This document shows, piece by piece, positions 1,151-26,586 of a stretch of 61,077 bases of DNA. Position 1 is the stretch's first letter. Every line of letters starts with the position of its first letter. The notes under the pieces are model-generated. The model saw only the letters and a list, made by a program, of their open reading frames with translations, was not told where the DNA came from and ran no database searches. Made by a program: the position numbers and the translations under genes. The stretch lies in contig CAZHOB010000004.1 in the NCBI GenBank assembly GCA_964534465.1, forward strand, positions 1 through 61,077, in the 5' to 3' direction. The stretch comes from an uncultured Candidatus Saccharibacteria bacterium (GTDB lineage Bacteria > Patescibacteriota > Minisyncoccia > Phycocordibacterales > UBA2100).

Positions 1151-1186
1151 GCTATACTGCGCCCTTATTCTAGACAGAACGATCAT

Positions 1187-1575: not shown

Positions 1576-1665
1576 GTCCGTTCCTATTCATGTAGAATCC
1601 CCCTACTGTTATCCACCCAGCGCTTCATATTAGTTTCGAATCAACTAGTACAATAATGAAACACC

Positions 1666-11348: not shown

Positions 11349-11756
11349 ATGACAGCAGAAGCAGCAGCCAAGAAACCGCGCGCTACGCGCGCTCCCGCCA
11401 AGAAGGCGGACACTTCCGCTGCGCCCGCTCCTCGCTCCAAGAAGTCCGACACGCACCGCCTGCGCATTCGCGTGCGTGCTTACGAGCACGGCGTACTCGA
11501 CCTTTCCGTCAAGCAAATAATCGATACTGCCGCTCGCTACAACGCCGAAGTTGTCGGCCCCGTGCCGCTCCCTATCGATATCAAGAAATACACCGTCAAT
11601 CGCGCCGCCTTTATAGACAAAGACTCTCGCGAACAGTTCGAAATGCGCATCCACAAACGCATGATAGACATCCTCAACCCCGCACCCAAGGTCATCGAAG
11701 CGCTCACTAATATCGACCTTCCATCGGGTGTGAGCATTGATGTCAAAATGATGTAA
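11349..11756 (+). CDS. rpsJ: 30S ribosomal protein S10 with a ~34-aa Ala/Lys/Pro-rich N-terminal extension
   Basis: HRLRIRVRAYEHGVLDLSVKQIIDTAARYNAEVVGPVPLPIDIKKYTVNRAAFIDKDSREQFEMRIHKRMIDI...LPSGVSIDVKMM*. Confidence 0.93.
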   Translation: MTAEAAAKKPRATRAPAKKADTSAAPAPRSKKSDTHRLRIRVRAYEHGVLDLSVKQIIDTAARYNAEVVGPVPLPIDIKKYTVNRAAFIDKDSREQFEMRIHKRMIDILNPAPKVIEALTNIDLPSGVSIDVKMM

Positions 11757-11870: not shown

Positions 11871-12107
11871 ATGAAAACCCTCATTGGTATTCTCGTTCTT
11901 GTCGCTCTCAGTGGAGCGGCATACGCTGAGACTCGCGCAGGGTTCTGCGCTTCGCGTCAGGCCCGTTTTCAGCAGGGCTGCATGGGCAAAATAGGGGCGA
12001 GCGTCCTCTCTTGTCAGGAATCGGCGCAGATCAGGTACCGCTCCTGCCTGCAAACAGGCTGCTGGCCCTGGGAGAGCGGCCCCGTTTGTCCTCCGGGACT
12101 CAGATGA
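11871..12107 (+). CDS. Small secreted Cys-rich protein (78 aa, 7 Cys)
   Basis: GGAGG SD and signal peptide MKTLIGILVLVALSGAAYA. Terminator at 12116-12146. Confidence 0.55.
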   Translation: MKTLIGILVLVALSGAAYAETRAGFCASRQARFQQGCMGKIGASVLSCQESAQIRYRSCLQTGCWPWESGPVCPPGLR

Positions 12108-12264: not shown

Positions 12265-12468
12265 ATGAAGTTCATCTTTCCGGCACTGATCGCGCTCACG
12301 ATCTTCGCCCCGACAGCGTACGCCGGCCCAAGGGCTGATGCAGCGGTAGCCTGCCATCAATACGCTGCTCAGGACCCTGTCTACAAGGCAACCGGCCGGC
12401 GAAGCGTCGCCTACGGCCAGCGATTCATGTCGTGCATGCAGAGCAAGGGCTTCGGGCCGCCCTACTAA
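12265..12468 (+). CDS. Small secreted protein (67 aa)
   Basis: SD GGGAGTGGAG and signal peptide MKFIFPALIALTIFAPTAYA. The terminator at 12477-12508 shares the gcaggttgcc stem with the previous one. Confidence 0.55.
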   Translation: MKFIFPALIALTIFAPTAYAGPRADAAVACHQYAAQDPVYKATGRRSVAYGQRFMSCMQSKGFGPPY

Positions 12469-12511: not shown

Positions 12512-13426
12512 TTGGTATGCATTGGCTACAATGGCAGGGTGTATGCTTTTGATTATGGCTGGAACACCTCGGGCTCGACAGAGTCGTTTTTTTTGAAGTA
12601 TCGTCCGTGCACACGCACGCCCGGTTCGTGGAGGGAAGAAATAGATAAAGCCGCGCTTATGATCGCCAATAAAGCGCAAAAGCCTCTCTGGATATATTTT
12701 GCCGGCGGAATGGAAGGGGAGATACTCTGCAGTGCCTTTGAGCGTCTCGGCATACATTTCTCGGTGTTGCTGATAAAAAATCAGACGGATGCAAATCGTC
12801 GCAACGTGCTCTATGCGCAAAAGTGGTGCTATGACCATGGCATTGAGTGCAGGGTAGTGCCCGTCGACATCGTCAGCTTTTTTGAAAGCGATATCGAGCG
12901 TTATATAGGGGACTCTTTGATATCGCTCACACTGTACCGTTATTGGCAGATCAAAGTACTCGAGGTCATCGACGAGCTTGGCGGCTGTGCGGTGATGGCC
13001 GAGGGCAAGCAAATCTTCCAATTGAAACAGGCCGCTCCTGCGCACGAGGAAGATGTGGAGATCAATTTTGACGCGGGCATCGCAGCGCCGCTCGAGTGGT
13101 GCAGGCGGGCCGGCCAGTTCCATATACCGTATTTCTTTTCATCCACGCCTGAGCTCGTGCGCTCGTATCTCAACATACCCGTCATTGAAAGTGCTCTCCT
13201 GCACCCGGAGACGTTGGTCAGTAAACACAACAAGCATGCGATCATGCGCATCGCGATCCGCACATACTTTCCCGAATTGGAAACCCCTTATATGCCCAAT
13301 GCGTTCGGTCTTCGTGGAACTATGGGCGCGAAGAAACAAGCGCAGCTGCAGGAGCGATTCGCACATATTTCGCAACGCTTCAGGCTTTCAGTGCCCGCAC
13401 TCAAGCAGCAACTAAGTGGTCATTGA
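12512..13426 (+). CDS. PP-loop ATPase-like protein with a degenerate motif (paralogue of 22576..23457)
   Basis: Aligns to the paralogue (CTRTPGSWREE vs CTREPLPWREE). The PP-loop position reads FAGGMEGE instead of SSGGIDSE. Non-ATG (TTG) start as given in the ORF track, so the start is uncertain. Confidence 0.55.
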   Translation: MVCIGYNGRVYAFDYGWNTSGSTESFFLKYRPCTRTPGSWREEIDKAALMIANKAQKPLWIYFAGGMEGEILCSAFERLGIHFSVLLIKNQTDANRRNVLYAQKWCYDHGIECRVVPVDIVSFFESDIERYIGDSLISLTLYRYWQIKVLEVIDELGGCAVMAEGKQIFQLKQAAPAHEEDVEINFDAGIAAPLEWCRRAGQFHIPYFFSSTPELVRSYLNIPVIESALLHPETLVSKHNKHAIMRIAIRTYFPELETPYMPNAFGLRGTMGAKKQAQLQERFAHISQRFRLSVPALKQQLSGH

Positions 13427-14517
13427 TCTCCTGACTTTACGATAGCGATGTGTTCTTCTATCCCGCGTGCACAGACCGGCGTGAGGGTGGTGTCTTTCAG
13501 GCCAGCGCAAAATGCCCGCACGGCGGAGCTATCGCCCATCGCAGAAATGTACGTCATGCCGTAGATGCATGAATTTCGCTGGTAGGTTTCTGAAAAATGC
13601 TCACATACCGCCTCGGCGGCAGCAGGATTTGAAATGACGAGCGGTGCGTTATGAAACCCTATACCCTCAAAGCAATCCGTTTTGCCGGCGGCATCCCGCA
13701 CGCTCTCGCAGGCAGACTTTTGCTGCGCGAGCGTTTGCTCTTGCGAGGAACCTGCTTCCTCAAAGATGCGGTCTTGCAGCTTGGGCAAGAACGTAAAACA
13801 CGCGTGGAGTTCGTCACGGGGGGCCTTGTCGCACGGGTAGAGAACGTCACTGCGATCAAAAAGGCCCAGCGATGCCTCGCGATCGTACACATCGAACGCA
13901 TTTTCCATGTAGATACCACGAAAGCAGGCATTCGCTTGACTCCTGTCGTGTGCGATCTTCCGGCACAGTGCCGTAGAAGAGGCGATAGAGTTTAGTTCCT
14001 GGAACAGCACATGGCCGATGCCATGGCAGGTAACGATGTTCTGACACAGGCGGCCCCCGAGAGCGGTGATCTCGGGCATGCCCATGTGTGCGAGGTCCAC
14101 GTCAACGGTCGTCGTTCCAATCTGCTCTCGGAACGCCTCGCCGATCGCGCCGTGAGCGCACCCTTGCCCGCACACGTTGCCACAGAGTGCCATCGTATGT
14201 TCCAGATCCTTCTCACTGGAATAGAGCTGCGCACCCACCACGTGCGATATCAAATGGCACCGCAACGGGTCGACCGAGCTTTCAATGTATCCTTCGGCGT
14301 CGTGCGGGGCATAAGAAGCAAGAATGTTCTGTACCGCTTCCTGAATGCACGGCGAATCCTCGTATGTGGCGTGCGGACTATGCAAAGGGCACTGCGATAT
14401 GAGGCGCTGCACTTTTTGCGCAGGTGAGAGGGAGGGGCGAAACGCAAAAAAAACGAGCACCCCCAGCATGAGCACGCAGAGTGCCACTATCTTCCGGAGC
14501 CTCTGCGCGTGTCCCAT
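13420..14517 (-). CDS. Membrane-anchored Cys-pair/His-rich repeat protein, paralogue 1 of 3, function unknown
   Basis: N-terminal TM helix, then repeated C-x(6-12)-C-x-x-G units. Examples: RCHLISHVVG, CGQGCAHGAIGEAF, CHGIGHVLFQ, CFRGIYMENAF, CFEGIGFH, CIYGMTYI. Confidence 0.65.
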   Translation of the reverse strand: MGHAQRLRKIVALCVLMLGVLVFFAFRPSLSPAQKVQRLISQCPLHSPHATYEDSPCIQEAVQNILASYAPHDAEGYIESSVDPLRCHLISHVVGAQLYSSEKDLEHTMALCGNVCGQGCAHGAIGEAFREQIGTTTVDVDLAHMGMPEITALGGRLCQNIVTCHGIGHVLFQELNSIASSTALCRKIAHDRSQANACFRGIYMENAFDVYDREASLGLFDRSDVLYPCDKAPRDELHACFTFLPKLQDRIFEEAGSSQEQTLAQQKSACESVRDAAGKTDCFEGIGFHNAPLVISNPAAAEAVCEHFSETYQRNSCIYGMTYISAMGDSSAVRAFCAGLKDTTLTPVCARGIEEHIAIVKSGDQ

Positions 14518-14521
14518 AACC

Positions 14522-16189
14522 CTAGACGAGTTCGCGCGTCGAAAGATGCGTGAGTATACGTGCCGCGGCAGCTTCTGCCGAAGTCTCCGTCGTGTCTATA
14601 CGTATGTCGGGATCCTCGGGTGCCTCGTACGCATCATCAACGCCGGTAAAATCTTTGAGGTTGCCGCTGCGCGCCTTCTTGTAGAGACCCTTTGGATCAC
14701 GTTTTTCGCAGATGGACAGCGGTGTATCGATGAACACTTCGATATAGGTGCCGTTGGCAGCGATAAGCCGGCGATTTTTTGCGCGAGCGTGCGCGTAAGG
14801 GGCTATGGCGGCACACAGGGCAATACCTCCGTGTTTGGCTATTTCTCCGGCAACGAAACCGATGCGCTCTATATTGATATTGCGGTCTTCTTTGCTAAAA
14901 CCGAGCCCGCGCGAGAGGTTATTTCGCACGACGTCCCCGTCCAAAAGAGTAACGGAACGATGCGAGCACTCGAGCAGGGCATGGTAGAGCCTCAGAGCGA
15001 TGGTCGATTTGCCTGCGCCCGAATAGCCGGTAAAAAATACTACGGTGCCGCGCAGTTTTTCTTTTGCCATTGCGCGCCGGAGCTCTTCCACGACCTCGGG
15101 AAATGAGAACCACGCAGGTATTTCTTTTCCGGCGCGGAGCATTGCGCGGAACTGCGTCCCCGAAATACGGGAAGGCGTGCGATCCCCAAGCTCATCGAGG
15201 CACATGTACTTTTGCTCAGCCTCGACGTACACCAACTCCTCGGTGGGCAGTATCTTGATGCTGAGTGCGCGCTCGTGCTGCAGTGCCGCTGCTTGCGCAG
15301 CGTATGGTCCGTAAAATGGCGCACCATTTTTACCGGCCGCTCCCGCGTGGTCGCGTCCGACGATAAAATGTGTGGCGCCGTAATTTTTTCTGATCAGCGC
15401 ATGCCAGATGGCCTCACGGGGCCCTGCCATGCGCATCGCGATAGGGAGGAGTGCGAGCAATGCATGGTCTTTGAAATATGTCCCTGCGAGGCGTTTGTAA
15501 CTGCGCACGCGCGTTACGTAGTCGATGTCGCCTTCTTTGGTCGGTCCTGTGACCGGATGTACGAGGGCTTTTCCACCCACCTTTTTGAGAGCGCGCATGA
15601 TTATCTCGTAGTGCGCGCGATGGATGGGATTACGCGTTTGGAACGCGACAACGATATCCCACCCCCTCTTTTGAAATTCTTTTTTGAGCTCGTTCGGCCT
15701 GAACCTCAAGTCCTTGAAATCATGTGCGGGTGAATAGCGAATGAGTTCTACGGGCCCGCCAAGATACAAATTGCCGGTGTCCTCCATGAGATAGCGCACG
15801 CCGGGATGCTCAAGGCTTTCTGTGCCATACACAAGGCGCGCTTCACGCGATTTGTCCGGCTGGTAAATGCTCAAAATGGTAAAGAACGCTATCGGGTCGC
15901 CGTAGATGTCGCACAGTATGACTTTCTCATCGAGCATGGGAGCGGAAGCGCTCTGCGTGTCGAGTACGATAGGTATCGGGAAGAGCGTACCGTCGGAAAG
16001 TCGAGAGTGCAGGACGACGGAGTCGTAGTCTTTTTCATTCAGAAATCCGGACAATGGCGCAAATCCGCCGCACAGTATCTGCTCGAGATCGAGCCGTTGC
16101 CGCTCAGTCAGCGTAATGCGTCGCAGCTCCGGAAGCGGGGCGGTGCCTACGGAAAACGCGAGCGCGGAACGTTCCATACGTGGATTCAT
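14522..16189 (-). CDS. Bifunctional sulfate adenylyltransferase / adenylylsulfate kinase (PAPS synthase-type fusion)
   Basis: ATP-sulfurylase motifs QTRNPIHRAHYEI, HPVTGPTKEGDIDY and VGRDHAG. The C-terminal APS-kinase P-loop reads FFTGYSGAGKSTIA. Confidence 0.88.
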   Translation of the reverse strand: MNPRMERSALAFSVGTAPLPELRRITLTERQRLDLEQILCGGFAPLSGFLNEKDYDSVVLHSRLSDGTLFPIPIVLDTQSASAPMLDEKVILCDIYGDPIAFFTILSIYQPDKSREARLVYGTESLEHPGVRYLMEDTGNLYLGGPVELIRYSPAHDFKDLRFRPNELKKEFQKRGWDIVVAFQTRNPIHRAHYEIIMRALKKVGGKALVHPVTGPTKEGDIDYVTRVRSYKRLAGTYFKDHALLALLPIAMRMAGPREAIWHALIRKNYGATHFIVGRDHAGAAGKNGAPFYGPYAAQAAALQHERALSIKILPTEELVYVEAEQKYMCLDELGDRTPSRISGTQFRAMLRAGKEIPAWFSFPEVVEELRRAMAKEKLRGTVVFFTGYSGAGKSTIALRLYHALLECSHRSVTLLDGDVVRNNLSRGLGFSKEDRNINIERIGFVAGEIAKHGGIALCAAIAPYAHARAKNRRLIAANGTYIEVFIDTPLSICEKRDPKGLYKKARSGNLKDFTGVDDAYEAPEDPDIRIDTTETSAEAAAARILTHLSTRELV

Positions 16190-16195
16190 TCTATG

Positions 16196-17278
16196 CTACT
16201 GCGGGTTGTCTTCAAGTGCTTGGCCCATACTCGGATCCTCGCGGCGCGCGGCAGTGATGTTCGCGACATTTCGCTCGCACGCCGCCTGCAGATTGCCGAG
16301 GCCCCTGCAGGCACGTTTGGCAAATGAGAGCGGTCGAAAATAGCTGAAATGAGCGCCTGCCGTTATCTGACAATCAAATCGCGTCACGGGGTCGGTGGCA
16401 ATGGCGTCACATATTTTTACGGTCTTGTCAGGGTCATCGTTGGTCAAGAACTGAATGTTGGTCGCTATTCCGCGGACGCACCACCTATAGACTGATGCAT
16501 CGCCGGGCATTAGTTTGCACCACGCGCCCATTTTTTTTGCCATTGCGATGTCGTCGGCATTGTGGAAAACGAACATCCACCACATGGGCTGCCAATATAC
16601 GCACGCGGACCTGTCACCGATGTCTTTGATGCTCGCGCAAGGCTGGAGCGGATGTTTCGGATCACCTCGCATAGGAATGTAATCTCCCTCGCCCTGCATA
16701 AACCTCATCAAATACTCCATGAACAAGCCCCCCGAACAGCCTCTCACCTGATCCGTACTTGGTTTTAGTGATTTACATACGGCGAGCGCTTTCTGTACGT
16801 CCGCCGTGGTATATCCGATCGCATTCAGAATGCCGTGGCCGATGCCGTGCCGGCATTGGAAAGGTGTCACAGACTTGGAACACGCATCGCTCAAAAGTTG
16901 CACTGAATCTATACCGCCGCTCCGTATCGCCTGCGTCATGAACGCATGAAAACATCCGTACTCGAATCTGTCGTCGCATACGCGGACGCCGGAAATTCCC
17001 TCCACTTGGTACAATGCCTCCCCGAATATATGTGATTCAATGTGTTGTTGATTCGCGATCAGCGATCTGACGGACTTGGCGAATTCCTCGTAGGTGGCAC
17101 TACCGCCGACGTCTTTGATCCTGCTCTGCCAATGCATCAGTTTTTGCGCGTACGACATCCCTTTCAGGTCGACCACCGATCCCAGATGCGGATATATCGC
17201 GCCGGCATAGAGGCACACGGCGATCAATGCCATGGACAGCGCGATCAGTACGAGATGTTTTTTTAGGAATTCGCGCAT
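16196..17278 (-). CDS. Membrane-anchored Cys-pair/His-rich repeat protein, paralogue 2 of 3
   Basis: N-terminal TM helix. Motifs GCFHAFMTQ, CRHGIGHGILNAIG, CSGGLFMEYL, CVYWQPMWW, CVRGIATN. Stop lies 6 nt from the next start. Confidence 0.65.
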   Translation of the reverse strand: MREFLKKHLVLIALSMALIAVCLYAGAIYPHLGSVVDLKGMSYAQKLMHWQSRIKDVGGSATYEEFAKSVRSLIANQQHIESHIFGEALYQVEGISGVRVCDDRFEYGCFHAFMTQAIRSGGIDSVQLLSDACSKSVTPFQCRHGIGHGILNAIGYTTADVQKALAVCKSLKPSTDQVRGCSGGLFMEYLMRFMQGEGDYIPMRGDPKHPLQPCASIKDIGDRSACVYWQPMWWMFVFHNADDIAMAKKMGAWCKLMPGDASVYRWCVRGIATNIQFLTNDDPDKTVKICDAIATDPVTRFDCQITAGAHFSYFRPLSFAKRACRGLGNLQAACERNVANITAARREDPSMGQALEDNPQ

Positions 17279-17287
17279 GGTGTCAAT

Positions 17288-18298
17288 TTAAGCTACAGCA
17301 ACGTCGTAAAAATCCCACTCCGTATTGTATTGATCATACGCAACGATCTCACCCTCGATATTCCCAAAGACGATGCGGGAGTGCTGGTCGTCCACCATGA
17401 TCCAGAGGCCGTCGACAAATTGGCAATCTTGCACCCAATCCGACGGTATCGTAATGGAGTTTTCCACGGTGAATGTATCGCCGCGCAAACGACCGCGATA
17501 CGAAATGCCTCTGCAGCTGTCGGCAAATGTAATGCGTCCGCCCTCGCTCCAGCGCGCGCCATGGGGGCGCTGAAGGCCTTCCACGATGGGCGTCACCTTT
17601 CCCGAACCCCGGTCGATCTTCGCGAGCATGTTTTGATGGAAAAAAGTAGCCAAGAGCGCATCATCTTCCGGCAATTCGATCGCAGTATTGACCTGCACCG
17701 TGCGAAGCCATGTGTCATAGTGCATCATCCGGTGGTCCTTCTTCTTATCCAAAACTCTCTTTCGCCCGAGTGCCCCTGTGGGGAAACCGTTCTCCGTCGC
17801 GAACCACGACCAGAGCACCTTTTTGCCGTCTTTCGACATCTCAAAAATTGAATCGGTGCCGGAGGAAACGACCATAAATCCGGCGGTGCTCTCGCGAACG
17901 GAATGAAGCTCATTGAACGCTTTGTGCGTGGCGAATATTTTCTCCGCGCTTAGATCCTTTGAAAAAGCGCCGACATCGTGATGCCGTGCACCAAGTATGG
18001 TCCCGTCGCTGCGTCGAATGATCCCGTAGATGAAATTGCAGCGCATGTAGCGTGATACCGTGGCATCTTTTTCGACCCGCACGATGAGACCTGCAGAAGG
18101 ATCATGGAGATCGGGCAGAGTGCATGTGGTGACTTTGGGATACGCGCGTTTTTTGCCCTTCTCGCTTTCCCAACGTGCCTTGCGCTCGCTCAAATTCTGA
18201 TACGAGACCGAAAGATAATACGCGGGGAGAGCGATCCGCTTACCCGTGAAGTGTCGTCGCAACTTCGCCATTTCAGCTGCCTCCGGTTGATGGTTCAT
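17288..18298 (-). CDS. Hypothetical protein with a weak arylsulfotransferase (ASST)-like beta-propeller signature
   Basis: HYDTWLRTVQVNTAIELPEDDALLATFFHQNMLAKIDRGSGKV resembles the ASST-family H-x-N ... S-x-x-x-Q ... KID-x-x-(S/T)-G-K block as I recall it. An ARHHDVG segment is also present. Assigned by eye only. Confidence 0.35.
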   Translation of the reverse strand: MNHQPEAAEMAKLRRHFTGKRIALPAYYLSVSYQNLSERKARWESEKGKKRAYPKVTTCTLPDLHDPSAGLIVRVEKDATVSRYMRCNFIYGIIRRSDGTILGARHHDVGAFSKDLSAEKIFATHKAFNELHSVRESTAGFMVVSSGTDSIFEMSKDGKKVLWSWFATENGFPTGALGRKRVLDKKKDHRMMHYDTWLRTVQVNTAIELPEDDALLATFFHQNMLAKIDRGSGKVTPIVEGLQRPHGARWSEGGRITFADSCRGISYRGRLRGDTFTVENSITIPSDWVQDCQFVDGLWIMVDDQHSRIVFGNIEGEIVAYDQYNTEWDFYDVAVA

Positions 18299-19581
18299 GA
18301 CGTTGTGGACTCGTCGCTAAGGACGAGCGTTTTTCCGCGTTTTGAATATCGCTCAATGTTGCTCACCGCTTCTACGGTAAGGGCGATCTTCGGGCCAACA
18401 AGCGGCATCAGAGTTTCTACAAGCTGCGATTCTGTGCGTTCATCGAAGCGTGCGCTTGGAACGATGCGCACGAGCATCCTATCTTCCGCTTTTTTCACGA
18501 TCTGATAGCGGTGCACGATATTCATGAATGGCTGAAGTTTGACATCGAATTCAAATTGGTGGAAGCGCCGGTCGCCAAATGAGAGCATTGAAGAATATCT
18601 CCCGTCGATCCATAGCCGCTGCGCATATAATCCGCACGTGCACTTCTCCCATGAGAGGCGGCCCCGATCACCGGTATCGTACCGCACGAAAGGCATTTGA
18701 TAATTGAAGACATCGGTAATAAGAACTTTGCCGTATGTTCCGTCGGAGAGTGGCATGCCATCCGTATCAACGACCTCGACGATGAACGACTCTACATTGA
18801 TGTGAAATCCGTCATGGGCGGAGCACTCCGAACCCACATTACCGAATTCTTCAAGTCCGTACCGATCGAACACCTCACAGTGAAGTATCCTTTCCACATG
18901 GGCCCGAGCCAACGGGGTCATTTTTTCTCCCATGGAGATAGCGTATTTGAAACGGAGCGGACTTTTAAAGCGCTCGACCGATCGTGCGACTTCGGGCAAG
19001 AGGGAAGCGACGGTTTCTATGGCATGCGGCTCGAATGCGACCATTTGATCGATAGCGGTCTTCGGGTCGCGCAAAAAATCATCGAAGCGAATGTAGAGCC
19101 GATTCGGTCTCTCCCGCGGTATCACCCGCAGCTGGACCATGCGCATCCACTCGGTATCGAACCGCCACGGCGTTCGTGCCAGCAAAAAACGAAAGTGGAG
19201 CGAATCGCGATAGTATTGGGCAGTCACGTGCGATTTGCGGAACGGAGAGAAGGGCGTGCCGCTCGAGCCGGATGTTGAGTCCCATTGACCCGACAGAAGT
19301 GTGCTGTTGTCCGTAAAATCCTCGTAATATCGTCCGAGGAACATCGTTTTATTCATGATAGGGAGCTTCGGCAGATCCGCGATATGCAGGATATGCGCAG
19401 TGTCCACGCGGTGTCTCGCGAGCAATTCTTTATAAAGCGGAATGTTGGTCGCGAGGTATGGCAGAACTTTTCGCAACTGCTTTTCCTGCCACGCGCGTAT
19501 CGTGCGCACGGATCTCTGGTGCACCATGTGAAAACGCAGGAATCGAAGGGTGTAACGCATCCGATAGTACAAAGCCCACAT
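18295..19581 (-). CDS. PaaK / coenzyme F390-synthetase / CapK-like adenylate-forming ligase, paralogue 1
   Basis: AMP-binding P-loop variant WDSTSGSSGTPFSPF. A Lys lies near the C-terminus (KRGKT). Overlaps the next gene by 4 nt. Confidence 0.7.
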   Translation of the reverse strand: MWALYYRMRYTLRFLRFHMVHQRSVRTIRAWQEKQLRKVLPYLATNIPLYKELLARHRVDTAHILHIADLPKLPIMNKTMFLGRYYEDFTDNSTLLSGQWDSTSGSSGTPFSPFRKSHVTAQYYRDSLHFRFLLARTPWRFDTEWMRMVQLRVIPRERPNRLYIRFDDFLRDPKTAIDQMVAFEPHAIETVASLLPEVARSVERFKSPLRFKYAISMGEKMTPLARAHVERILHCEVFDRYGLEEFGNVGSECSAHDGFHINVESFIVEVVDTDGMPLSDGTYGKVLITDVFNYQMPFVRYDTGDRGRLSWEKCTCGLYAQRLWIDGRYSSMLSFGDRRFHQFEFDVKLQPFMNIVHRYQIVKKAEDRMLVRIVPSARFDERTESQLVETLMPLVGPKIALTVEAVSNIERYSKRGKTLVLSDESTTS

Positions 19582-19582
19582 A

Positions 19583-20926
19583 TCAGAATTTTTTTATGTA
19601 ATATATCGCCTTGCTGCTTTGCGCCGCTTCGATCTCTCCAACGATCTCCCATCGTATGAGCGCCCGTGGATGAAGCATGTACAGCAACGCGCGCTCCAGA
19701 GTGCCCTGTATTACTTCGAACGAGTGCCCCGGTACGACCTTTATCGTGAAATCGAGCTCACGTGTATGGATGATCTGATACTGCTTCACTGCTTCGAAAT
19801 ACATATCGAAGGTAGCGGACACATCGAGGAGGGAAACGTCTCGGCGATCCGGTAGATGGATGATGTGCGCTTCGCGGCCCCGTATTTTTATTGTGCGGAG
19901 CGACCGTCCACAGGGACAGTTGTCATCATCAATAATACCCAGATCGCCATTGAAATATCGAATGAACGGCATCACCCCATTGTCGAATACGGTCACGACG
20001 ACTTTTCCTTCGGTGCCGGCGGGCACCGGTGTTCCGGCGCTGTTCACGATCTCAATGAGCGCCGTTTCTTCATTTATATGTAATCGACCATTTTCGCAGG
20101 TGAACGCGAGCCAGCCTAATTCCTGCGATGTATAGCACGACGTTATGGGCGCTTTGAACGTTTCTTCGAGTAATGCTTTTGCGCTCGGCTGTAATTCTTC
20201 ACCTGTGGCAATTATGCCCCGTATCGGTAGTGCGATGCCGCGCTCTTTGGTAAGCCGGCCCAGCTCAAGGAGCGGGGAAACGAATGCATAGAGAATAAAA
20301 CCATCGGGATAGGTGAGCGCTCGTTCAACAAAAATATCATAGCGATTCTTCAGGCTGCTGTAGCTTCGAAGGAAAAAGAATTCGTGATCGATGAGCGCAA
20401 AACCCGCTCGCGGGCGCGTGCGCATCGATATCACGGGGAATCGCACCCCCCCGCCTGCGATGCGGAACATGCGCTCGCAAACCGCAAAGGTGCGCAGCAC
20501 AAACCTTCTATCCACCAAAAATCCGAACGGTCTTCCGGTCGAACCCGACGTGCGGTCTTTGTGAGCGCGATCCTTATATCGCGGGTCCGTTATCGCGGGA
20601 TAGCCGGCGTCGGTCAGTTCTTTTTTTGAAACGATGGGAAGTTTGGCGAATGCGGCGCGGCCATCGCCGTGCCTGATGCCGATTTTCTCGAAGAGCGCCT
20701 TCCAGTACGGCACATGACCGGCACTCCGCAGAAGCTTTTGCAGCCGCCTTGCCTGCAGGTCTTCTAGTGCGGTGCGCGGCCAGTACTGGCTCCTCATGAG
20801 CGCGTGAGTATCGAGGAGGAGTGGAATGAGCAACGGCAAACGCCAGTAGAGGAGGGGATGGGTCCATAAAACATCTGCTCGAAGGCCGGTTTTTCTGAGC
20901 ACTGCAAAGTACAATGTATCGAGCAT
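19583..20926 (-). CDS. PaaK / F390-synthetase-like adenylate-forming ligase, paralogue 2
   Basis: HKDRTSGSTGRPFGFLVD. Overall collinear with 18295..19581 and 23454..24782. Confidence 0.72.
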   Translation of the reverse strand: MLDTLYFAVLRKTGLRADVLWTHPLLYWRLPLLIPLLLDTHALMRSQYWPRTALEDLQARRLQKLLRSAGHVPYWKALFEKIGIRHGDGRAAFAKLPIVSKKELTDAGYPAITDPRYKDRAHKDRTSGSTGRPFGFLVDRRFVLRTFAVCERMFRIAGGGVRFPVISMRTRPRAGFALIDHEFFFLRSYSSLKNRYDIFVERALTYPDGFILYAFVSPLLELGRLTKERGIALPIRGIIATGEELQPSAKALLEETFKAPITSCYTSQELGWLAFTCENGRLHINEETALIEIVNSAGTPVPAGTEGKVVVTVFDNGVMPFIRYFNGDLGIIDDDNCPCGRSLRTIKIRGREAHIIHLPDRRDVSLLDVSATFDMYFEAVKQYQIIHTRELDFTIKVVPGHSFEVIQGTLERALLYMLHPRALIRWEIVGEIEAAQSSKAIYYIKKF

Positions 20927-20964
20927 GGCAGGATGATTCTATCACCGCCCCGAGACACGTTCAT

Positions 20965-20993
20965 TTGACTTTCACAAGTCTTCGGGTTATAAT
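20965..20993 (+). promoter_or_regulatory. Near-consensus sigma70 promoter driving the 21044-24782 operon
   Basis: TTGACT-17 nt-TATAAT, read directly from the sequence. It is ~50 nt upstream of the AGGAGG-ATG of the 21044 gene. Confidence 0.6.
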
Positions 20994-21043
20994 CGCCCGC
21001 AGCTGAAACACGGACAGGTCGTCCGAGCAATAAGGAGGCGTGC

Positions 21044-21280
21044 ATGAAGTCGTTTCTCGTTGCCCTCGCGTGCGGGGCACTTGCGCTCACGGCTCTCGAG
21101 GCGTCGGCGGCGGGCCGCCAGATGATCCCATGGAAGGACGCGCAGGGGAATCGCATTTTCATCCCGCTGCCGCGCAACTACGCGGAGTGTCGGGACAACA
21201 ATGCGAAATACACGCATTATCCTGCCGACGTCTCTCACCGCTATTGTTCCTCGCCGGATAGGTGGTGGAACAAGCGATAA
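21044..21280 (+). CDS. Small secreted protein (78 aa), candidate substrate or accessory of the cluster
   Basis: AAGGAGG SD and signal peptide MKSFLVALACGALALTALEASAA. The mature part is rich in Tyr/Arg/Asn/Asp with 2 Cys. Terminator at 21295-21325. Confidence 0.6.
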   Translation: MKSFLVALACGALALTALEASAAGRQMIPWKDAQGNRIFIPLPRNYAECRDNNAKYTHYPADVSHRYCSSPDRWWNKR

Positions 21281-21346
21281 CGTCGCGAAGAGCAAAGGTG
21301 GTACCGAAAGGTGCCACCTTTTTATTGTGGGAGTATAATCCGCACC

Positions 21347-22528
21347 ATGCGGCGAGTTGCTTTGCTGATAAGCTTCCTCCTCTTTCTGCTCGGAGCGTCG
21401 CTGTTCATCTTGCACGGACGAGACCCGTTCGCCGATATCGCGAATTGTGTTCAGAAGAAAAAAAATAGCATCATTTGTACACAGCCGTACATTCAAAAAA
21501 TGCTCGACACCATGAGCGGAGATTCGATAATGACCGAGCTCAACAAGCGTTTTGATCCGATGAGATGTCATTTCGTTGGCCACGTCGTAGGTCAGCAACT
21601 CTATCGAAAGTATCAAAGTGTTGAAAAGGCAATGAAAGAATGTTCCCGCACATGCAGCGCTGCATGTCCGCACGGAATCATTGGCGAAGCGTTCGCGGAG
21701 CAACTCGGGTTTACCAAACCCGATCAGGTGGAAGAGCTCGGACATTTGGATGCTGACGAATTAATGCAGGTCGGCAGGAGGCTCTGCAGGGGACCGCAGG
21801 CGTGTCATGGCGTCGGTCACGCACTGTTCCAAGCGTATCAGCAGTTCACTCCCGCTCTCGCGATGTGCAAAAAGGTCACTCCCCCAAGTCAGCGAGCGTA
21901 TTGTTACTCGGGCGTATTCATGGAGAATGCCGACCTGCTCACTGATCGGAACATGCGAGCGCTCCCGAGCAACGCGTTCCCTCAAGCACAAGAACTCCCT
22001 ACGTATTGCACCAAATACACGGATGTATATCAAAAACGAATGTGCTTTGTGTATTTTCCACGCATCGTGTACGCCTTGCTCAGGGCGCAAGGAAAAAGTA
22101 CGGCAGACGCCATGGGCTATGCAAAAAACATCTGCGATTCGTACGAGAAACACTCCACGGAGCGAAGCGCGTGTTTCGCGGGACTGGGCTCGAATAATTT
22201 TTATCTTGCGGCCGAAAATCCGGACACGGCGAGCTTCTCGTGCACATTTCCAAATAAAGCCGACAGTGCCGCATGCAACCTCGGACAACTATTGATAGAT
22301 GCTGCGGACAGGACATCCATAACGTTCCCGTACTGCCGATCCATAACAGAGCCTGACCTTCGCAGTACATGCTTTCAAGGACTATTCTTCACCGTGTACA
22401 CGGGAGCGGCATCGATAGATGAGGCAAAAACGAACTGCGAGGACGATCGAATATGTTTGGATGCCGCGGCGCACTATAAAGAAGACCCGTGGACTCTTAT
22501 TGAGAAGACATTTGGACAAAGCTCATAG
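21347..22528 (+). CDS. Membrane-anchored Cys-pair/His-rich repeat protein, paralogue 3 of 3
   Basis: Internal ATG at 21347 (MRRVALLISFLLFLLGASLFIL). Motifs RCHFVGHVVGQQLY, CSAACPHGIIGEAF, CHGVGHALFQ, CYSGVFMENA, CFAGLGSNNF, CFQGLFFTVY. Closest to 13420..14517. Confidence 0.65.
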   Translation: MRRVALLISFLLFLLGASLFILHGRDPFADIANCVQKKKNSIICTQPYIQKMLDTMSGDSIMTELNKRFDPMRCHFVGHVVGQQLYRKYQSVEKAMKECSRTCSAACPHGIIGEAFAEQLGFTKPDQVEELGHLDADELMQVGRRLCRGPQACHGVGHALFQAYQQFTPALAMCKKVTPPSQRAYCYSGVFMENADLLTDRNMRALPSNAFPQAQELPTYCTKYTDVYQKRMCFVYFPRIVYALLRAQGKSTADAMGYAKNICDSYEKHSTERSACFAGLGSNNFYLAAENPDTASFSCTFPNKADSAACNLGQLLIDAADRTSITFPYCRSITEPDLRSTCFQGLFFTVYTGAASIDEAKTNCEDDRICLDAAAHYKEDPWTLIEKTFGQSS

Positions 22529-22575: not shown

Positions 22576-23457
22576 ATGAGCGCATTTTCCTTCGCGGGAG
22601 AAGGTAAGAGTTTCTCGGTCCGTTTCAATGCGTGCACGCGCGAACCTCTTCCATGGCGCGAGGAAGTGTACGCCGCCGCACGCGCAATTCATCTGAAAGC
22701 CAAAAAGCCGATATGGGTATGCTCTAGCGGCGGTATCGACAGCGAGGTCGCATGCCGCGCGTTTTATGACCAAGATATCCCGTTCTCGGTCCTTACGCTC
22801 GAACACAGGGAGGGCACGAATGCCCACGATATCAGATTCGCCGTGAAGTGGTGTGAGGAGCGCGGCGTATCCCAAAAAATAGTTCCGATAGACATGGAGA
22901 GGTTCCTTACCGAAGATATCGAGAAATACGCCGAGCGATACATTGCGATCCATCCATTCCGTTATTTTCAGCTCAAGCTTCTTGAGATCGTTGAAGAAAT
23001 GGGAGGCTTTGCCGTCCTTTGCAGCGGTGAGCAGATCTATCACTCCGATATGTCAAAAAAAGTGCTTACGCGCAGCGACATGGTCATCTCCGTATCCAAT
23101 GGCACGGCGATGCCACTTGCATGGTGTACCCAGCACAAAACAGAGCACGAGCCGTATTTTCATTTTGCGACGCCCGAGCTGTGCCTTTCGTATATCCGTC
23201 AGCCCTTGATATCTTTCGCGCTCGATAATCCGGAGTACGTGTTCCGTCATCCCGTGAACACCTATGCGCTCAAGCGCATGGCGTATCTCTCGGCGTGGCC
23301 CGACATGGAGGGACGTTTCAAATATCACGGATATGAACGCCTGAAGGAGGGACTGTTCCAGCATGCGTACGATACGTTGCACAAAAAATTCGCGGACCGG
23401 TTCGTTCGCGTCGATATTCCAGTCGACGAATTCGAGCGACAACTTCTCGGCGCATGA
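22576..23457 (+). CDS. PP-loop ATP pyrophosphatase superfamily protein (adenine nucleotide alpha-hydrolase; subfamily unresolved, PAPS-reductase-like is possible)
   Basis: Intact SGGxDS motif in IWVCSSGGIDSEVACRAF. The stop overlaps the next start (ATGA at 23454-23457). Confidence 0.7.
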   Translation: MSAFSFAGEGKSFSVRFNACTREPLPWREEVYAAARAIHLKAKKPIWVCSSGGIDSEVACRAFYDQDIPFSVLTLEHREGTNAHDIRFAVKWCEERGVSQKIVPIDMERFLTEDIEKYAERYIAIHPFRYFQLKLLEIVEEMGGFAVLCSGEQIYHSDMSKKVLTRSDMVISVSNGTAMPLAWCTQHKTEHEPYFHFATPELCLSYIRQPLISFALDNPEYVFRHPVNTYALKRMAYLSAWPDMEGRFKYHGYERLKEGLFQHAYDTLHKKFADRFVRVDIPVDEFERQLLGA

Positions 23458-24782
23458 TACAAGCGATCCTGGAGAAGAAGTGGTTGCGCGCGGACCGGAT
23501 ATGGACGCATCCGCTGGCATACAAGAGTTTTCTGCGGCTCATTCCGCTTTTTACCGACACGTGGGCACTCGTAAAAAGTCAGTATTGGTCACGCGAAGCA
23601 CTCGAGCGTATGCAGGATGTGCGATTGGGCGACCTCTTCAGGGAGGCGGATCATATTCCTCACTGGCATGAATTGCTGAGCCGTACACAGGGGACTCCGC
23701 GTGAAATACTCTCGCAGCTGCAGATCACGTCGAAGAGCGACCTCAATGAACGAGCTGTAGAGGAAATCGCCTTGACCGCGCTCTTTGCGATCTGTGATAC
23801 CGATCACACCTCGGGTTCTACGGGAAAACCGTTCCATTTTTATCAGGACCGGCATGATTCATTGCGAAGCTTCGCTGTCGTGGAGCGCATATTTCGCACG
23901 ATAACAGGCGGGAAGCGATACCCAATAGTCTACGTGCGCTCCAAGGAACGTTTCGGCTTTACCCCGTACATGCACGAGTGGTTTTATGTGCATGGGTATC
24001 CGCAGATACCATCAAGGATGGAGGACTTCGCGAAGTTGGCCGAGAAATATCCGGATGGATTCATATTGTACGGATATACGACGTGGGTCGTGGAGATCGT
24101 GCGGCAGATGGGGCTTCGAAAAATAGACATGCCGTTGCAGGCGGTGGTCGTGGCCGGAGAGCACCTCGCCGAGGGTGATAAAGAATTCATTGAGCAGGTA
24201 ACAGGCGCTCCGCTTTTCACGCTCTTTGCCTCGCGCGAAGCGGGATACATCGGATTCGAGTGCGAGCATCATGCGATGCATATCAGCGAAGAGTGGTGCC
24301 TCATGGAGGTCGTAGATACAGAGGGCAACGCGCTGCCCTTAGGAGCAGAAGGACGTATCGTCGTTACGACGTTCGATAACCTTGTCATGCCCTTCATACG
24401 ATATGACCTTGGTGATATCGGGAAGATCTCGCCACTACCGTGCACGTGCGGTAGAACACTGCGGACGTTCACCTACAAGGGCCGCATATCTGAGCGCATC
24501 GAACTTGGGGGCGGCAAAGTCGTCAGCCTTTTGGATATCGCATATTCACTCGGTCGGTACCGCGATGCGATCCGCCAGTACCAGATCGTTCAAAAGAGCA
24601 CGAGCGAATTTATTTTCAAAGTGATCCCCGGACCGCTGTTCGAAAAAAACAGAACGAACCTCGAAGAATTCATGCGCTCGCTGCTGGACCAAAGAGTGCA
24701 TATACTCTGGGAGGTGGTCGAACACATACCGGCGGGGAAGAGCGGTAAGGCTGTCTATTTCGTACGCGACCTCAAGCAGTAG
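23454..24782 (+). CDS. PaaK / F390-synthetase-like adenylate-forming ligase, paralogue 3
   Basis: DTDHTSGSTGKPFHFYQD. C-terminal PAGKSGKAVYFVRD. Confidence 0.72.
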   Translation: MIQAILEKKWLRADRIWTHPLAYKSFLRLIPLFTDTWALVKSQYWSREALERMQDVRLGDLFREADHIPHWHELLSRTQGTPREILSQLQITSKSDLNERAVEEIALTALFAICDTDHTSGSTGKPFHFYQDRHDSLRSFAVVERIFRTITGGKRYPIVYVRSKERFGFTPYMHEWFYVHGYPQIPSRMEDFAKLAEKYPDGFILYGYTTWVVEIVRQMGLRKIDMPLQAVVVAGEHLAEGDKEFIEQVTGAPLFTLFASREAGYIGFECEHHAMHISEEWCLMEVVDTEGNALPLGAEGRIVVTTFDNLVMPFIRYDLGDIGKISPLPCTCGRTLRTFTYKGRISERIELGGGKVVSLLDIAYSLGRYRDAIRQYQIVQKSTSEFIFKVIPGPLFEKNRTNLEEFMRSLLDQRVHILWEVVEHIPAGKSGKAVYFVRDLKQ

Positions 24783-26422
24783 ATCTCACCCGCGTTCGTC
24801 GGCACGAAGAGAAGGTCGCTCTTCACGGCGATGGCGTTCACGATGCGTTCGGTGGTTTGAAAAAAACGCTTGAGTTTGCCGGAGCGCGGATCTATTTCAT
24901 GCAGTTTGCCGTCATTGGACCCAAGCCATAGAGAATTATTCCAGAAGACCGGCGATGCAAAGACGCGACCGCCTGTCTCATACGTCCACAGGTCCTTCCA
25001 GTTCGTGCAATCAATGGCGTACAAACATTTGTCGAGGGAGGCGATGAAGAGCGTGTCATTATGCACCAGCGGTATTGAGTATATGCCGCTACCCGTTTCG
25101 CGGGCATGGAGCGGCATGCCGCCCTGTGCGCCGAGAGCATATAAGCGTCCATCCATAGAAGCGAAAACGACGGCGCGACGTTTCGCATCGTAGGCGGCGC
25201 GGGTCTTAATATCGCCGCGCGAAGCGAATTTCCATTGCAATTCACCGCTCTTCGCATCGTAGGCATAGAGCACGCCGTCGTTACTTCCGATCACGACGAG
25301 TCCCTCTTCCTTTATATAGAGAGGGGAGCCATGAGTGAGGGAGGGATGCGAGGCATGCCACGTGAGGTGTCCCGATCTAAGGTCGAGCGCGGCGATGCCA
25401 CCGTGCTTGCGCCATAGTCCATACTCGAGTCCTATATAGATGAGCCCAAGATCCGGCGCGATGTCGGGTGAAGAGCCGACCCAGTCGGCGTCCGCATAAC
25501 TCCAGATCTTCTTTCCTGTTTTCGCCTCGAGCGCGTACACCGTGCCATCGTATGCGCCAAAATATACAAGCTCTCCATGGAGCGCGGGCGAGGAGAGAAT
25601 ACTTTTTCCGGTCGGATGTTTCCCGATCCTGAATTCCCATGCGACTTCGCCGCTCGTAAGAGAGAGCGCGCGGAACGCTCCATCGTCGCAGCCAAAGTAT
25701 ATGCGTTCCTCATCGAGCACCGGCGCAGATTTTTGTACCACCAGATCGTAGAGAGGTGCGGGTGCGCTGTATTTCCACAGCACTTCGAAATCATCCTTGG
25801 GAATTTCCGGTGTATGGGAGCGCTGGAGCGGTAATCCAAAATCGGAAATGGAAAAAAGATGCGTGAGGCGCACGTTTTTTTCCGTTAGAAATGCATACGC
25901 TTCATTCTCGCGGAACGTGAGGATCACAAAAGCGTCGGTAACTTTTTTTCCCGCGGCGTGCAGGATGTCGACCTGCTTGTTGATGCTCTGTCCCGAATTC
26001 ATCAAGTCGTCGACAAAGATGACGGGCTCATCGGTGAGCGTGCCCTCGATCTGTTTCATGAGCCCTGTGCGTTTGCGCGATTTTCGCAGGTAAAAACCAT
26101 TCACCGGAGTGCCACGCTCCTGACCTTTCATCACAATGGCGGCGAGCAGAGCGATGCCGGCCGTCTCCACGCTTCCCACTTGGAATGGATAGTGCTGGTG
26201 GTAGTGCTGCCAAAAGAGCTCAGCGTACCTATTGAGCCACGCGGACTGAAGCATGAGTGCCCTAAAATCAAATATCCACGGGTCGCGGGCGCCTGTCGAT
26301 CCGCCCGCGACGATGTCGACGCCTGCCCGCGCCCTGACCAATACGACGCTTGCAATGGCGCTGCGGAATTCCTGTAAAGGAGCGCTACCGATGGCTCTCG
26401 CCACGTTGGCTTTTGTATTCAT
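24755..26422 (-). CDS. Fusion protein: type-I phosphoribosyltransferase domain plus PQQ-like beta-propeller repeats
   Basis: PRPP-binding loop EPVIFVDDLMNSGQS. At least five propeller blades follow: GAYDGTVYALEAKTGKKIWSY, SNDGVLYAYDAKSGELQWKF, SMDGRLYALG, SLDKCLYAIDCTNWKDLWTY, SNDGKLHEIDPRSGKL. Confidence 0.7.
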   Translation of the reverse strand: MNTKANVARAIGSAPLQEFRSAIASVVLVRARAGVDIVAGGSTGARDPWIFDFRALMLQSAWLNRYAELFWQHYHQHYPFQVGSVETAGIALLAAIVMKGQERGTPVNGFYLRKSRKRTGLMKQIEGTLTDEPVIFVDDLMNSGQSINKQVDILHAAGKKVTDAFVILTFRENEAYAFLTEKNVRLTHLFSISDFGLPLQRSHTPEIPKDDFEVLWKYSAPAPLYDLVVQKSAPVLDEERIYFGCDDGAFRALSLTSGEVAWEFRIGKHPTGKSILSSPALHGELVYFGAYDGTVYALEAKTGKKIWSYADADWVGSSPDIAPDLGLIYIGLEYGLWRKHGGIAALDLRSGHLTWHASHPSLTHGSPLYIKEEGLVVIGSNDGVLYAYDAKSGELQWKFASRGDIKTRAAYDAKRRAVVFASMDGRLYALGAQGGMPLHARETGSGIYSIPLVHNDTLFIASLDKCLYAIDCTNWKDLWTYETGGRVFASPVFWNNSLWLGSNDGKLHEIDPRSGKLKRFFQTTERIVNAIAVKSDLLFVPTNAGEIYCLRSRTK

Positions 26423-26585
26423 ACCAGAGCTTCACGAGCATGGTTGCTGCCGTGACGCACCACACAATAAACCAAAAATAGCTGAAGGCATAGATGTGAT
26501 GGTCGATATATTGTTGCACAGGCGAAAGTTGCGTCGGTTTGTTGCCCGCCAGTTCTTTCAGTACGATCAATTTTTGGTCTTCCAT
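26385..26585 (-). CDS. 66-aa single-TM protein, coupled to the upstream membrane protein
   Basis: The ATG lies 1 nt after the TGA of 26587..27978. Reads MEDQKLIVLKELAGNKPTQLSPVQQYIDHHIYAFSYFWFIVWCVTAATMLVKLWYEYKSQRGESHR. It overlaps the 5' end of 24755..26422 by 38 nt. Confidence 0.45.
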   Translation of the reverse strand: MEDQKLIVLKELAGNKPTQLSPVQQYIDHHIYAFSYFWFIVWCVTAATMLVKLWYEYKSQRGESHR

Positions 26586-26586
26586 A

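Follow-up and report, generated by a model that had tools for sequence, protein, structure and literature searches.

The window analysed here, a stretch of 61,077 nucleotides (contig CAZHOB010000004.1 of assembly GCA_964534465.1) from an uncultured Candidatus Saccharibacteria bacterium, carries three genes for Cys- and His-rich proteins, referred to below as copies A, B and C, which are interleaved with genes for ATP-using enzymes. An initial annotation, made from the sequence alone, described these proteins as paralogous, membrane-anchored and built from Cys-pair repeats. All three open reading frames (ORFs) are present where that annotation had placed them and on the strands that it gave, with the following features.

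13420..14517, minus strand: copy A, 365 amino acids (aa), a type-I member (family hidden Markov model, HMM, E=1.9e-100)
14434..14490, minus strand: signal anchor of copy A, a transmembrane (TM) helix at about residues 10-28, with the basic residues R6, R8 and K9 before it
13903..14259, minus strand: His-cluster region of copy A, residues 87-205
16196..17278, minus strand: copy B, 360 aa, a type-II member (family HMM E=1.1e-55)
17192..17254, minus strand: signal anchor of copy B at about residues 9-29, with R2, K6 and K7 before it
16715..17047, minus strand: His-cluster region of copy B, residues 78-188
21347..22528, plus strand: copy C, 393 aa, with 20 Cys corresponding to 10 pairs; the reference for residue numbering
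21356..21412, plus strand: signal anchor of copy C at about residues 4-22 (helix 2-23 in the model), with R2 and R3 before it
21566..21925, plus strand: His-cluster region of copy C, residues 74-193, spanning the four motifs and the invariant columns

Copy C is identical to the 393-aa product (P0001) that the gene caller starts at position 21347. BLASTP relates A to C at 4e-48, with 30% identity over 305 aa, and gives 3e-7 for A and B and 6e-10 for B and C, identifying the three as diverged paralogues with 20-30% identity; a search with the family HMM found no fourth copy in the window. Each N-terminus consists of 2-9 mostly basic residues followed by a hydrophobic segment of about 19 residues, for which the best 19-residue Kyte-Doolittle window scores 2.4-2.8 and starts at residues 4-10. 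The paralogy, the common N-terminal anchor and the Cys-pair units together bear out the single shared architecture that had been proposed, and the five His-containing strings quoted in the initial annotation (CHGIGHVLFQ, CRHGIGHGILN, CHGVGHALFQ, CAHGAIGEAF and CPHGIIGEAF) are all found.

The Cys content of the three proteins is 4.2-5.2%, compared with 0-2.7% in the 16 other proteins of the gene cluster that were measured and only 0.7-1.2% for those of them that are enzymes. Apart from the TM helix, every copy has an even number of Cys residues (A 18, B 14, C 20), and these are borne by helix-loop-helix units with a Cys pair, of which A and C have 9-10 (ten in C) and B has 7. The earlier estimate of about eight units is thus a fair summary, although it is low for A and C and high for B. 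Likewise, the two-Cys pattern that had been assigned to every unit occurs in its exact form, C-x(5-12)-C-x-x-G, in five units of A, three of B and five of C, while the other units carry variants of it. Comparison of unit profiles with hhalign supports genuine internal repetition among units 3 and 5-9. U5 and U9 form the best pair (P=2e-6), and several further pairs have P between 1e-4 and 3e-3, all in register over the full unit; the two units with a CH..GH motif also resemble each other (U2-U4, P=3e-3).

By profile similarity, copies A, B and C belong to a large and widespread family that has no name in any of the databases searched. When 1.84 billion representative sequences (clusters at 50% identity) were searched with the profile in HMMER, 5308 proteins passed E<=1e-3; of these, 3295 had E<=1e-10 and 257 had E<=1e-30. 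The word-indexed homology search is far less sensitive, returning only 9-12 relatives and missing even copy A of the window, and a second search of this type added only P0040 (which is copy B), P0155 and P0156. The metagenome scan used an 11-sequence alignment. In the genome, metagenome and plasmid collections, members from the Candidate Phyla Radiation (CPR) belong to Parcubacteria, Saccharibacteria and Nomurabacteria. Beyond the CPR, the taxonomic survey called for by the initial annotation found the family in Gammaproteobacteria (Chromatiaceae), Acidobacteriota, Gemmatimonadota, including the cultured Gemmatirosa kalamazoonensis, and the Streptomycetaceae Kitasatospora, Streptacidiphilus and Streptomyces. 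Members are annotated as 'hypothetical protein', and the name 'Metalloprotease' that UniRef attaches to a few actinobacterial ones is an automatic name. Up to 6 paralogues occur at one locus (L005). In several giant relatives the domain is repeated 4-8 times in tandem (P0031 with 3580 aa, P0063, P0068, P0079 and P0111), and P0031 additionally contains a GH3 glycosidase domain and LRV/HEAT repeats.

The initial annotation could not place these proteins in a named family, and neither could we. Pfam (E<=0.1) and NCBIfam gave no match for A, B or C; among 65 relatives, Pfam gave no family match, the only hit being a noise-level TPR_7 (E=0.079) in one of them. A sequence profile search of the PDB produced only chance matches (E>0.3), the fold comparisons described below were equally empty, and literature searches retrieved no description of the family or of the exact gene cluster.

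What the family retains was examined in 165 single-domain members aligned to the family HMM, which have about 25% identity overall; residues are numbered as in copy C. H75, H79, G82, H109, H154, G157, H158 and M192 are conserved in 100% of them and E193 in 88%, with Gln at the latter position in a Kitasatospora homologue and in two domains of giant proteins. Seven Cys pairs are conserved in 98-100%. This pattern is far beyond chance. The invariant residues other than Cys are confined to the first four units, where they lie at the N-terminal turns of the second helices, in the motifs (C)HxxxHxxG, CxxxCxxxCxHG, CHGxGH and CxxGxFME. All three copies of the window have the complete set of five His, one Met and one Glu: H88, H92, H122, H165, H169, M204 and E205 in A; H79, H83, H111, H144, H148, M187 and E188 in B; and H75, H79, H109, H154, H158, M192 and E193 in C. 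Given that the site is intact in each of them, all three copies are probably active. The initial annotation had named the absence of conserved Cys and His columns among homologues as the result that would speak against it; the Cys columns and the five His columns are instead invariant or nearly so.

The Cys residues vary in pairs. C74 and C103 are both present in 156 members and both absent in 9, and neither ever occurs alone (phi=1.00); C99 and C107 are both present in 163 and both absent in 2, without a mixed case. The corresponding phi values are 0.94 for C34-C44 and 0.98 for C364-C370. In copy A, as a type-I member, C87-C116 is the equivalent of C74-C103, whereas copy B lacks both Cys residues of this pair and has 14 Cys in its ectodomain. 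Covariation and even counts make disulfides the best reading of the Cys pairs: nine or ten hairpin staples plus one link between units. Nearly every domain of the giant multi-domain relatives retains all seven site residues, but in one domain each of P0031 and P0063 the residues H79, H109, H154 and M192 are jointly changed to R, R, Y and Y, while every Cys pair is kept. The loss of the site residues as a set, with the Cys pairs retained, shows that the fold does not need them, and the joint loss of four residues is as expected of a single functional site. Two i,i+4 His pairs on two predicted helices, together with a His on a third helix and a Met-Glu pair, would be a typical arrangement for metal ligation.

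The initial annotation had also asked on which side of the membrane the Cys pairs lie, and features of several family members point to the outside. In addition to the signal anchors of A, B and C, there are classical cleavable signal peptides in proteobacterial relatives, a lipobox (LVNGC) in an acidobacterial one and, in the Kitasatospora homologues, an anchor with a Pro/Ala linker after it. Two relatives, P0137 and P0233, are fusions to an EfeO-type Cupredoxin_1 domain, in the order signal peptide, cupredoxin domain, family domain. Some relatives, including proteobacterial ones, carry His-rich stretches directly after the signal peptide or as inserts. The signal anchors and signal peptides, the lipobox and the cupredoxin fusions, along with the even and covarying Cys residues, argue for an outward-facing domain in which disulfides are sensible. 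The repeat domain is therefore predicted to be exported by Sec and to reside outside the cytoplasmic membrane.

Structure prediction gave confident models with no structural neighbour. The AlphaFold2 model of copy C, built from an 11-sequence alignment, is all-alpha with 23 helices (predicted local distance difference test, pLDDT, 86; predicted template modelling score, pTM, 0.81), with Cys residues where one helix ends and where the following one begins. A separate model of residues 60-205, built from 60 sequences, is likewise all-alpha (pLDDT 91.3, pTM 0.83). Foldseek found nothing at E<=1e-3 for the full model in either the PDB or BFVD; its best PDB matches were generic solenoids with E 0.1-0.6, template modelling scores of 0.11-0.26 and root-mean-square deviations of about 20 Å. 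The best PDB match of the residues 60-205 model had E 1.2.

Taken together, these observations lead us to propose, with moderate confidence, that copies A, B and C represent a new family of Sec-exported, membrane-anchored, disulfide-stapled helical-repeat proteins, in which the first four repeats carry a His5-Met-Glu metal or redox site. In the proposed arrangement, Sec would insert the protein with its short basic N-terminus inside, a single TM helix across the membrane and the remainder outside. The ectodomain would be a compact all-alpha structure of 7-10 helix-loop-helix units, in each of which the first helix would end, and the second begin, with a Cys, so that a disulfide within the unit staples the hairpin, and an extra disulfide, C74-C103, would join unit 2 to unit 3, a pairing suggested by the covariation and the even Cys counts. 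H75, H79, H109, H154, H158, M192 and E193 would form a single putative site for a metal or redox cofactor, the functional centre of the protein. Among metals, copper would be weakly favoured: the combination of Met and His in an oxidising compartment offers a tentative hint in its direction. Metal or redox chemistry had been one of several options raised by the initial annotation, and it is the one that we favour in view of the invariant His5-Met-Glu set, the joint residue loss and the partner genes described next.

Outside the window, several relatives are associated with metal or redox proteins. In addition to the two cupredoxin fusions, the homologue KPHV_86690 on the Kitasatospora purpeofusca plasmid pKP058, which matches the family at E=7e-38 and has an intact site, is encoded immediately upstream of a gene for a Caa3_CtaG copper-insertion factor (Pfam 7e-74), and a CopY-family regulator with an M56 peptidase, CcsB and CopC are encoded within about 7 kb. 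At the gammaproteobacterial locus L007, NnrS is the next gene downstream, and on a Streptomyces chromosome a Rieske protein gene lies downstream of the homologue. Other relatives adjoin genes for cell-envelope glycans, namely GT2, PMT_2 and polysaccharide deacetylase. As a side observation, a polytopic membrane protein of about 215 aa, with the motifs 'LMLDDFFMFHE' and 'LEDGAKLxGIVTW' and no Pfam match, is paired with the homologue in Chromatiaceae-like genomes only (L007 5543..6229; L008 10961..11605; L009 988..1650; L034 10954..11640).

Disulfide-bridged alpha/alpha-repeat proteins are a kind already known, among which the present family stands alone by sequence and fold. EfeO combines a cupredoxin with an all-alpha M75/imelysin-like metal-binding domain, and the order of signal peptide, Cupredoxin_1 and all-alpha domain in P0137 and P0233 mirrors this Cup-M75 arrangement, in these two fusion proteins only. 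Unlike EfeO, however, the family has neither a Peptidase_M75 match nor the HxxE motif, and M75 does not consist of disulfide-stapled repeats. A close parallel in architecture is offered by HcpB and HcpC (PDB 1KLX and 1OUV), which are likewise secreted or periplasmic and consist of helix-turn-helix units of about 35-45 aa, with an intra-repeat disulfide that links the last part of helix A to the first part of helix B, as predicted here, and a small residue (Gly) after the second Cys. Whereas the Cys spacing is fixed in Hcp proteins, it varies from 5 to 12 in the family, which would also have an extra disulfide between units, and the invariant His5-Met-Glu cluster has no counterpart in Hcp. COA7, a mitochondrial intermembrane-space assembly factor of complex IV, is a five-repeat Sel1-like repeat protein that resembles HcpB and HcpC, binds heme through His/Met axial ligands and reduces the disulfides of copper chaperones (PMC8892353). 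It parallels the family in the disulfide-tethered alpha/alpha repeats and the oxidising compartment, both predicted for the family, in the use of His and Met to bind a cofactor, which the family would share, and in a tie to the biogenesis of copper centres, which in the family takes the form of CtaG, CopC, NnrS and cupredoxin. The family differs in having no sequence or fold similarity to these proteins, in its membrane anchor, in its 7-10 repeats and in an invariant set of potential ligands that is much larger. In number, the putative ligands (five His, Met and Glu) resemble those of the binuclear His-rich centres of type-3 copper proteins and hemerythrin, where six His, or five His and two carboxylates, are held in a four-helix bundle; neither Pfam nor the PDB gave a match to these.

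Several other identities were considered and rejected. Membership in the Sel1-like repeat/Hcp group fits only in its repeat-disulfide architecture, with no PF08238 match in the three proteins and 65 relatives and no PDB fold match to solved structures such as HcpB, HcpC, COA7 and SEL1L. The evidence for TPR, HEAT or ARM solenoids amounts to the single noise-level TPR_7 hit and the weak Foldseek solenoids already mentioned. LanC-like proteins, alpha/alpha toroids with GxxG repeats and a zinc site of Cys, Cys and His, share only the look of their CHG and GxxG motifs, and no match to Pfam or to the PDB folds of NisC and LanCL1 was obtained. Zinc metallopeptidases of the HExxH or M75 HxxE types are not supported by the motifs H[FYL]x[GS]H and HGxGH, which lack a Glu in place, nor by any family match. 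The 'HIGH' motif of class-I synthetases would require a different fold, c-type heme attachment is not indicated as there is no CxxCH, and the 'Myxococcus cysteine-rich repeat' gave no match in NCBIfam.

The surroundings of the three genes bear on the role of the proteins in this bacterium. The cluster in which they lie has the following components.

11349..11756, plus strand: rpsJ (S10)
14522..16189, minus strand: bifunctional ATP sulfurylase/adenosine 5'-phosphosulfate (APS) kinase for the synthesis of 3'-phosphoadenosine 5'-phosphosulfate (PAPS), with Pfam PUA_2, ATP-sulfurylase and APS_kinase (NCBIfam NF004040, 1.6e-210)
17288..20926, minus strand: an unassigned 336-aa protein and two PaaK/CapK-like adenylate-forming ligases
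22576..24782, plus strand: PP-loop-like protein (SGGIDS) and a third PaaK-like ligase, downstream of copy C
24755..30190, minus strand: phosphoribosyltransferase (PRT)/PQQ-propeller fusion, 66-aa TM protein, 463-aa membrane protein, SagB-like nitroreductase and YcaO, assigned by Pfam and synteny
30233..30562, plus strand: candidate azole-peptide precursor, 109 aa, TM-anchored, with a Gly/Ser/Asp/Cys-rich tail; divergent from YcaO
37742..38380: rplC (L3)

The genes for S10 and L3 are normally adjacent in bacterial ribosomal-protein operons. Here they are separated by about 26 kb, which hold the cluster of repeat-protein, PAPS, ligase and YcaO genes and a 1474-aa PA14/PKD protein; L2, L6 and SecY follow downstream of the insert. 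Copies A and B belong to a tightly packed minus-strand operon in the order PaaK-like ligase, PaaK-like ligase, 336-aa protein, copy B, PAPS synthase, copy A, with the PAPS synthase gene set between the two copies by spacers of 4-6 nucleotides. Copy C heads a plus-strand operon with the PP-loop-like protein and the third PaaK-like ligase, an order also found at L002, L019 and L020. The 109-aa protein combines a TM helix at its N-terminus with the conserved motif 'A(H/R)AD(A/V)P' ('AHADAP') and the tail …SGGDSVSSGDSGGGQGSSDSGSDSGGCGDSGGDSGGGDSGSGGK; equivalents lie beside YcaO at L016 (2654..2965, minus strand) and L004 (1170..1496, minus strand). From these features it is likely a membrane-anchored precursor of a linear azole/azoline peptide and the candidate substrate of YcaO.

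Repeat proteins, the PRT-PQQ fusion, the nitroreductase and YcaO occur together in the window, in the P0005 contig and at L004, L016, L018, L019 and L022; these seven loci are every CPR locus examined that has enough flank to show a YcaO gene. The block adjoins the S10 gene in the window and at L004, L016, L018, L019 and L022. A 368-aa anchored protein (unk368) and a TPR protein (TPR261) are matched at L018, L019 and L022, with similar genes called at L016. The co-occurrence with YcaO, ligase and PP-loop genes, which the initial annotation had proposed to survey, is uneven: the YcaO core recurs in CPR bacteria, whereas ligases, PP-loop proteins and PAPS genes are variably present in the clusters of relatives. 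Clusters of YcaO and nitroreductase genes for linear azol(in)e-containing peptides (LAPs) have been reported in CPR bacteria, including 51 Parcubacteria genomes, and according to excerpts of that report they encode short precursors and include a peptidase gene (PMC7298704). The window has the same YcaO, nitroreductase and short Ser/Cys/Gly-rich precursor type, but the excerpted description of the LAP clusters makes no mention of Cys/His repeat proteins, PRT-PQQ fusions, PaaK-like ligases, PP-loop proteins or PAPS synthase (PMC7298704), and Pfam and NCBIfam detected no peptidase in the window cluster genes scanned. The repeat proteins themselves correspond to no known enzyme class of peptides that are made by ribosomes and modified after translation (RiPPs).

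Several observations weigh against a metal or redox site as the common function of the family. Metal and redox neighbours are few and depend on the lineage. The copper link is not universal, as no metal genes surround the chromosomal copy of Kitasatospora herbaricolor, and context is uninformative at Gemmatirosa and at most proteobacterial loci; the neighbourhoods of L006, L008, L033, L037, L038 and Gemmatirosa are heterogeneous and contain no functional clue. An apparent Rieske fusion, P0228, looks like a frameshift chimera. The clustering of the seven site residues in space is deduced from the register of the motifs, the C74-C103 and C99-C107 staples and the joint loss. The use of an elaborate copper or redox protein to a small-genome CPR bacterium is not obvious. 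Moreover, the family is present without YcaO at L005, at L014 and at all non-CPR loci, and a common site of insertion between rpsJ and rplC might account, at least in part, for its position next to the YcaO cluster. If the His cluster were only structural, for instance as a Zn site or a buried polar core, the proteins would be non-catalytic modules of the cell surface for binding, adhesion or structure, comparable to TPR/Sel1-type repeat proteins. The giants with tandem domain copies (among them P0031 with its GH3 and LRV/HEAT domains), the expansion to as many as six paralogues at L005 and the glycan genes GT2, PMT_2 and polysaccharide deacetylase next to some relatives would fit such a role, as would the Cys-rich extracellular proteins of CPR bacteria that have been proposed to act in attachment (PMC4736985). 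However, repeats with a purely structural or binding role seldom hold seven polar positions at 88-100% identity over five phyla when the overall identity is about 25%, and four of the site residues are lost jointly while the Cys pairs stay, which indicates a fold independent of them; we regard this explanation as unlikely. A heme-binding redox protein like COA7, in which the invariant His and Met residues ligate one or more b-type hemes, is less probable again. COA7 offers a precedent for disulfide-tethered helix-turn-helix repeats with His/Met ligation in an oxidising compartment (PMC8892353), the family has an invariant Met beside an invariant His, and cupredoxin, Rieske, NnrS and CtaG would be suitable redox partners. 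On the other hand, no Sel1 match was obtained in A, B, C or 65 members, the structures of COA7, HcpB and HcpC are solved and yet Foldseek returned no PDB match at E<=1e-3, and two HxxxH pairs, each on a single helix, fit a metal ion better than axial heme ligation. Finally, the domain could be a metallohydrolase outside the cytoplasm, with the HxxxH pairs and the Glu as its catalytic Zn site, that would process the exported azole peptide as a maturation protease or attack polymers of the envelope. The HxxxH spacing equals that of the HExxH zinc motif, Glu193 is conserved (with Gln at times), UniRef applies the automatic name 'Metalloprotease' to a few actinobacterial members, and the excerpted report of a CPR LAP cluster includes a peptidase gene (PMC7298704), of which the window cluster genes scanned have no match. 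Since Pfam and the PDB provide no match to a peptidase family, the first His is not followed by a Glu, and Gln replaces E193 also in members whose site is otherwise intact, which is a poor fit to a general-base role, we consider a hydrolase quite improbable.

The relation to the neighbouring enzymes raised a different possibility in the initial annotation, which suggested that the proteins might be scaffolds or substrate carriers for these enzymes, or even the modified substrates. On the first view the proteins would be tethered to the membrane but face the cytoplasm; on the second they would be modified by YcaO, the ligases or the PP-loop enzymes, and their Cys pairs would bind Zn or Fe-S clusters or become azolines. 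The tight operons with PAPS synthase, PaaK-like ligases and a PP-loop-like protein and the conserved synteny with the YcaO cluster would be in line with this proposal, to which we nevertheless give very little credence. Features of a signal anchor or signal peptide are found family-wide, and the Cys residues are even in number and covary as pairs. A domain predicted to lie outside the membrane could not scaffold ATP-using enzymes in the cytoplasm, which makes that part of the suggestion unlikely. A role as substrate is disfavoured because the family is common in phyla that lack YcaO and at loci with no YcaO, PaaK or PP-loop gene in the vicinity, because proteins of 360-393 aa with confident compact folds are unlike RiPP precursors, and because a separate, conserved Gly/Ser/Asp/Cys-rich precursor candidate (30233..30562) adjoins YcaO. 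The latter also fits the CPR LAP clusters with short precursors, as described in the excerpted report (PMC7298704). An identity as RiPP precursors was rejected for the same reasons.

Returning to the exported, disulfide-stapled metal or redox proteins that we favour, their genes would be co-transcribed, and are conserved, with the YcaO/nitroreductase cluster and its accessory genes for sulfation and adenylation. The repeat proteins would, speculatively, act outside the cell, on or with an exported product or on the envelope, rather than as partners of the cytoplasmic enzymes. A more specific version, which we consider doubtful, is that they form an extracytoplasmic metalloprotein class with a previously unseen fold and a His5-Met-Glu copper or binuclear centre, and that in Parcubacteria they are the outward-facing part of a YcaO azole-peptide system. 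If this were true, the repeat proteins might load with metal, oxidise or receive an exported thiazole/oxazole-rich, possibly sulfated peptide, and the YcaO cluster would be a metallophore-like or surface-chemistry system, not an antibiotic cluster. The family comprises at least 5,300 representatives of 50% clusters and combines a confident model with an invariant putative site, and still lacks a name, a model in Pfam or NCBIfam and any structural relative. If the site were defined, extracytoplasmic proteins of metal or redox function would gain a new type. For CPR bacteria, whose surface chemistry is thought to underlie their epibiotic lifestyle, this would account for a conserved component, present in several copies, of the one widespread RiPP-like cluster that is known from them. 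The homologues in culturable Kitasatospora, Streptomyces and Gemmatirosa make the question accessible to ordinary genetics and biochemistry.

Some further features of the cluster deserve mention. The products of 22576..23457 and 12512..13426, both on the plus strand, are paralogues of about 300 aa with no family match, and each of their genes adjoins a repeat-protein gene. The former keeps SGGIDS and has a weak PDB match to a PP-loop tRNA thiolase (E=0.14), while the latter has a degenerate AGGMEG at this position and may be an inactive partner. A PAPS-type sulfotransferase is encoded beside the PAPS synthase at L016 (12148..12930), and gene 373..1782 of the P0005 contig, which also carries repeat proteins, encodes a sulfatase. 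The presence of these genes in related clusters suggests sulfation of the cluster product or of the envelope. In the window no gene was recognised as a sulfotransferase, a role for which the 336-aa protein (17288..18298) is a candidate. A conserved single-TM protein of 66-68 aa (MEDQKLIVLKELAGNKPTQLSPVQQYIDHHI…) is encoded between the 463-aa membrane protein and the PRT-PQQ fusion at about 26385..26585 on the minus strand and at L016 6648..6854, and the P0005 contig has a gene of like size and place. The S10 protein of the window and its counterpart in 'Parcubacteria group bacterium Gr01-1014_8' share 95% identity, which assigns the window to a Parcubacteria genome. The window protein has an Ala/Lys/Pro-rich N-terminal extension of about 35 residues (MTAEAAAKKPRATRAPAKKADTSAAPAPRSKKSDTH…), and the alignment with L004 starts after this extension. 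Between rpsJ and the cluster lie two small ORFs on the plus strand, 11871..12107 (78 aa) and 12265..12468 (67 aa), whose products have clear signal peptides and several Cys residues.

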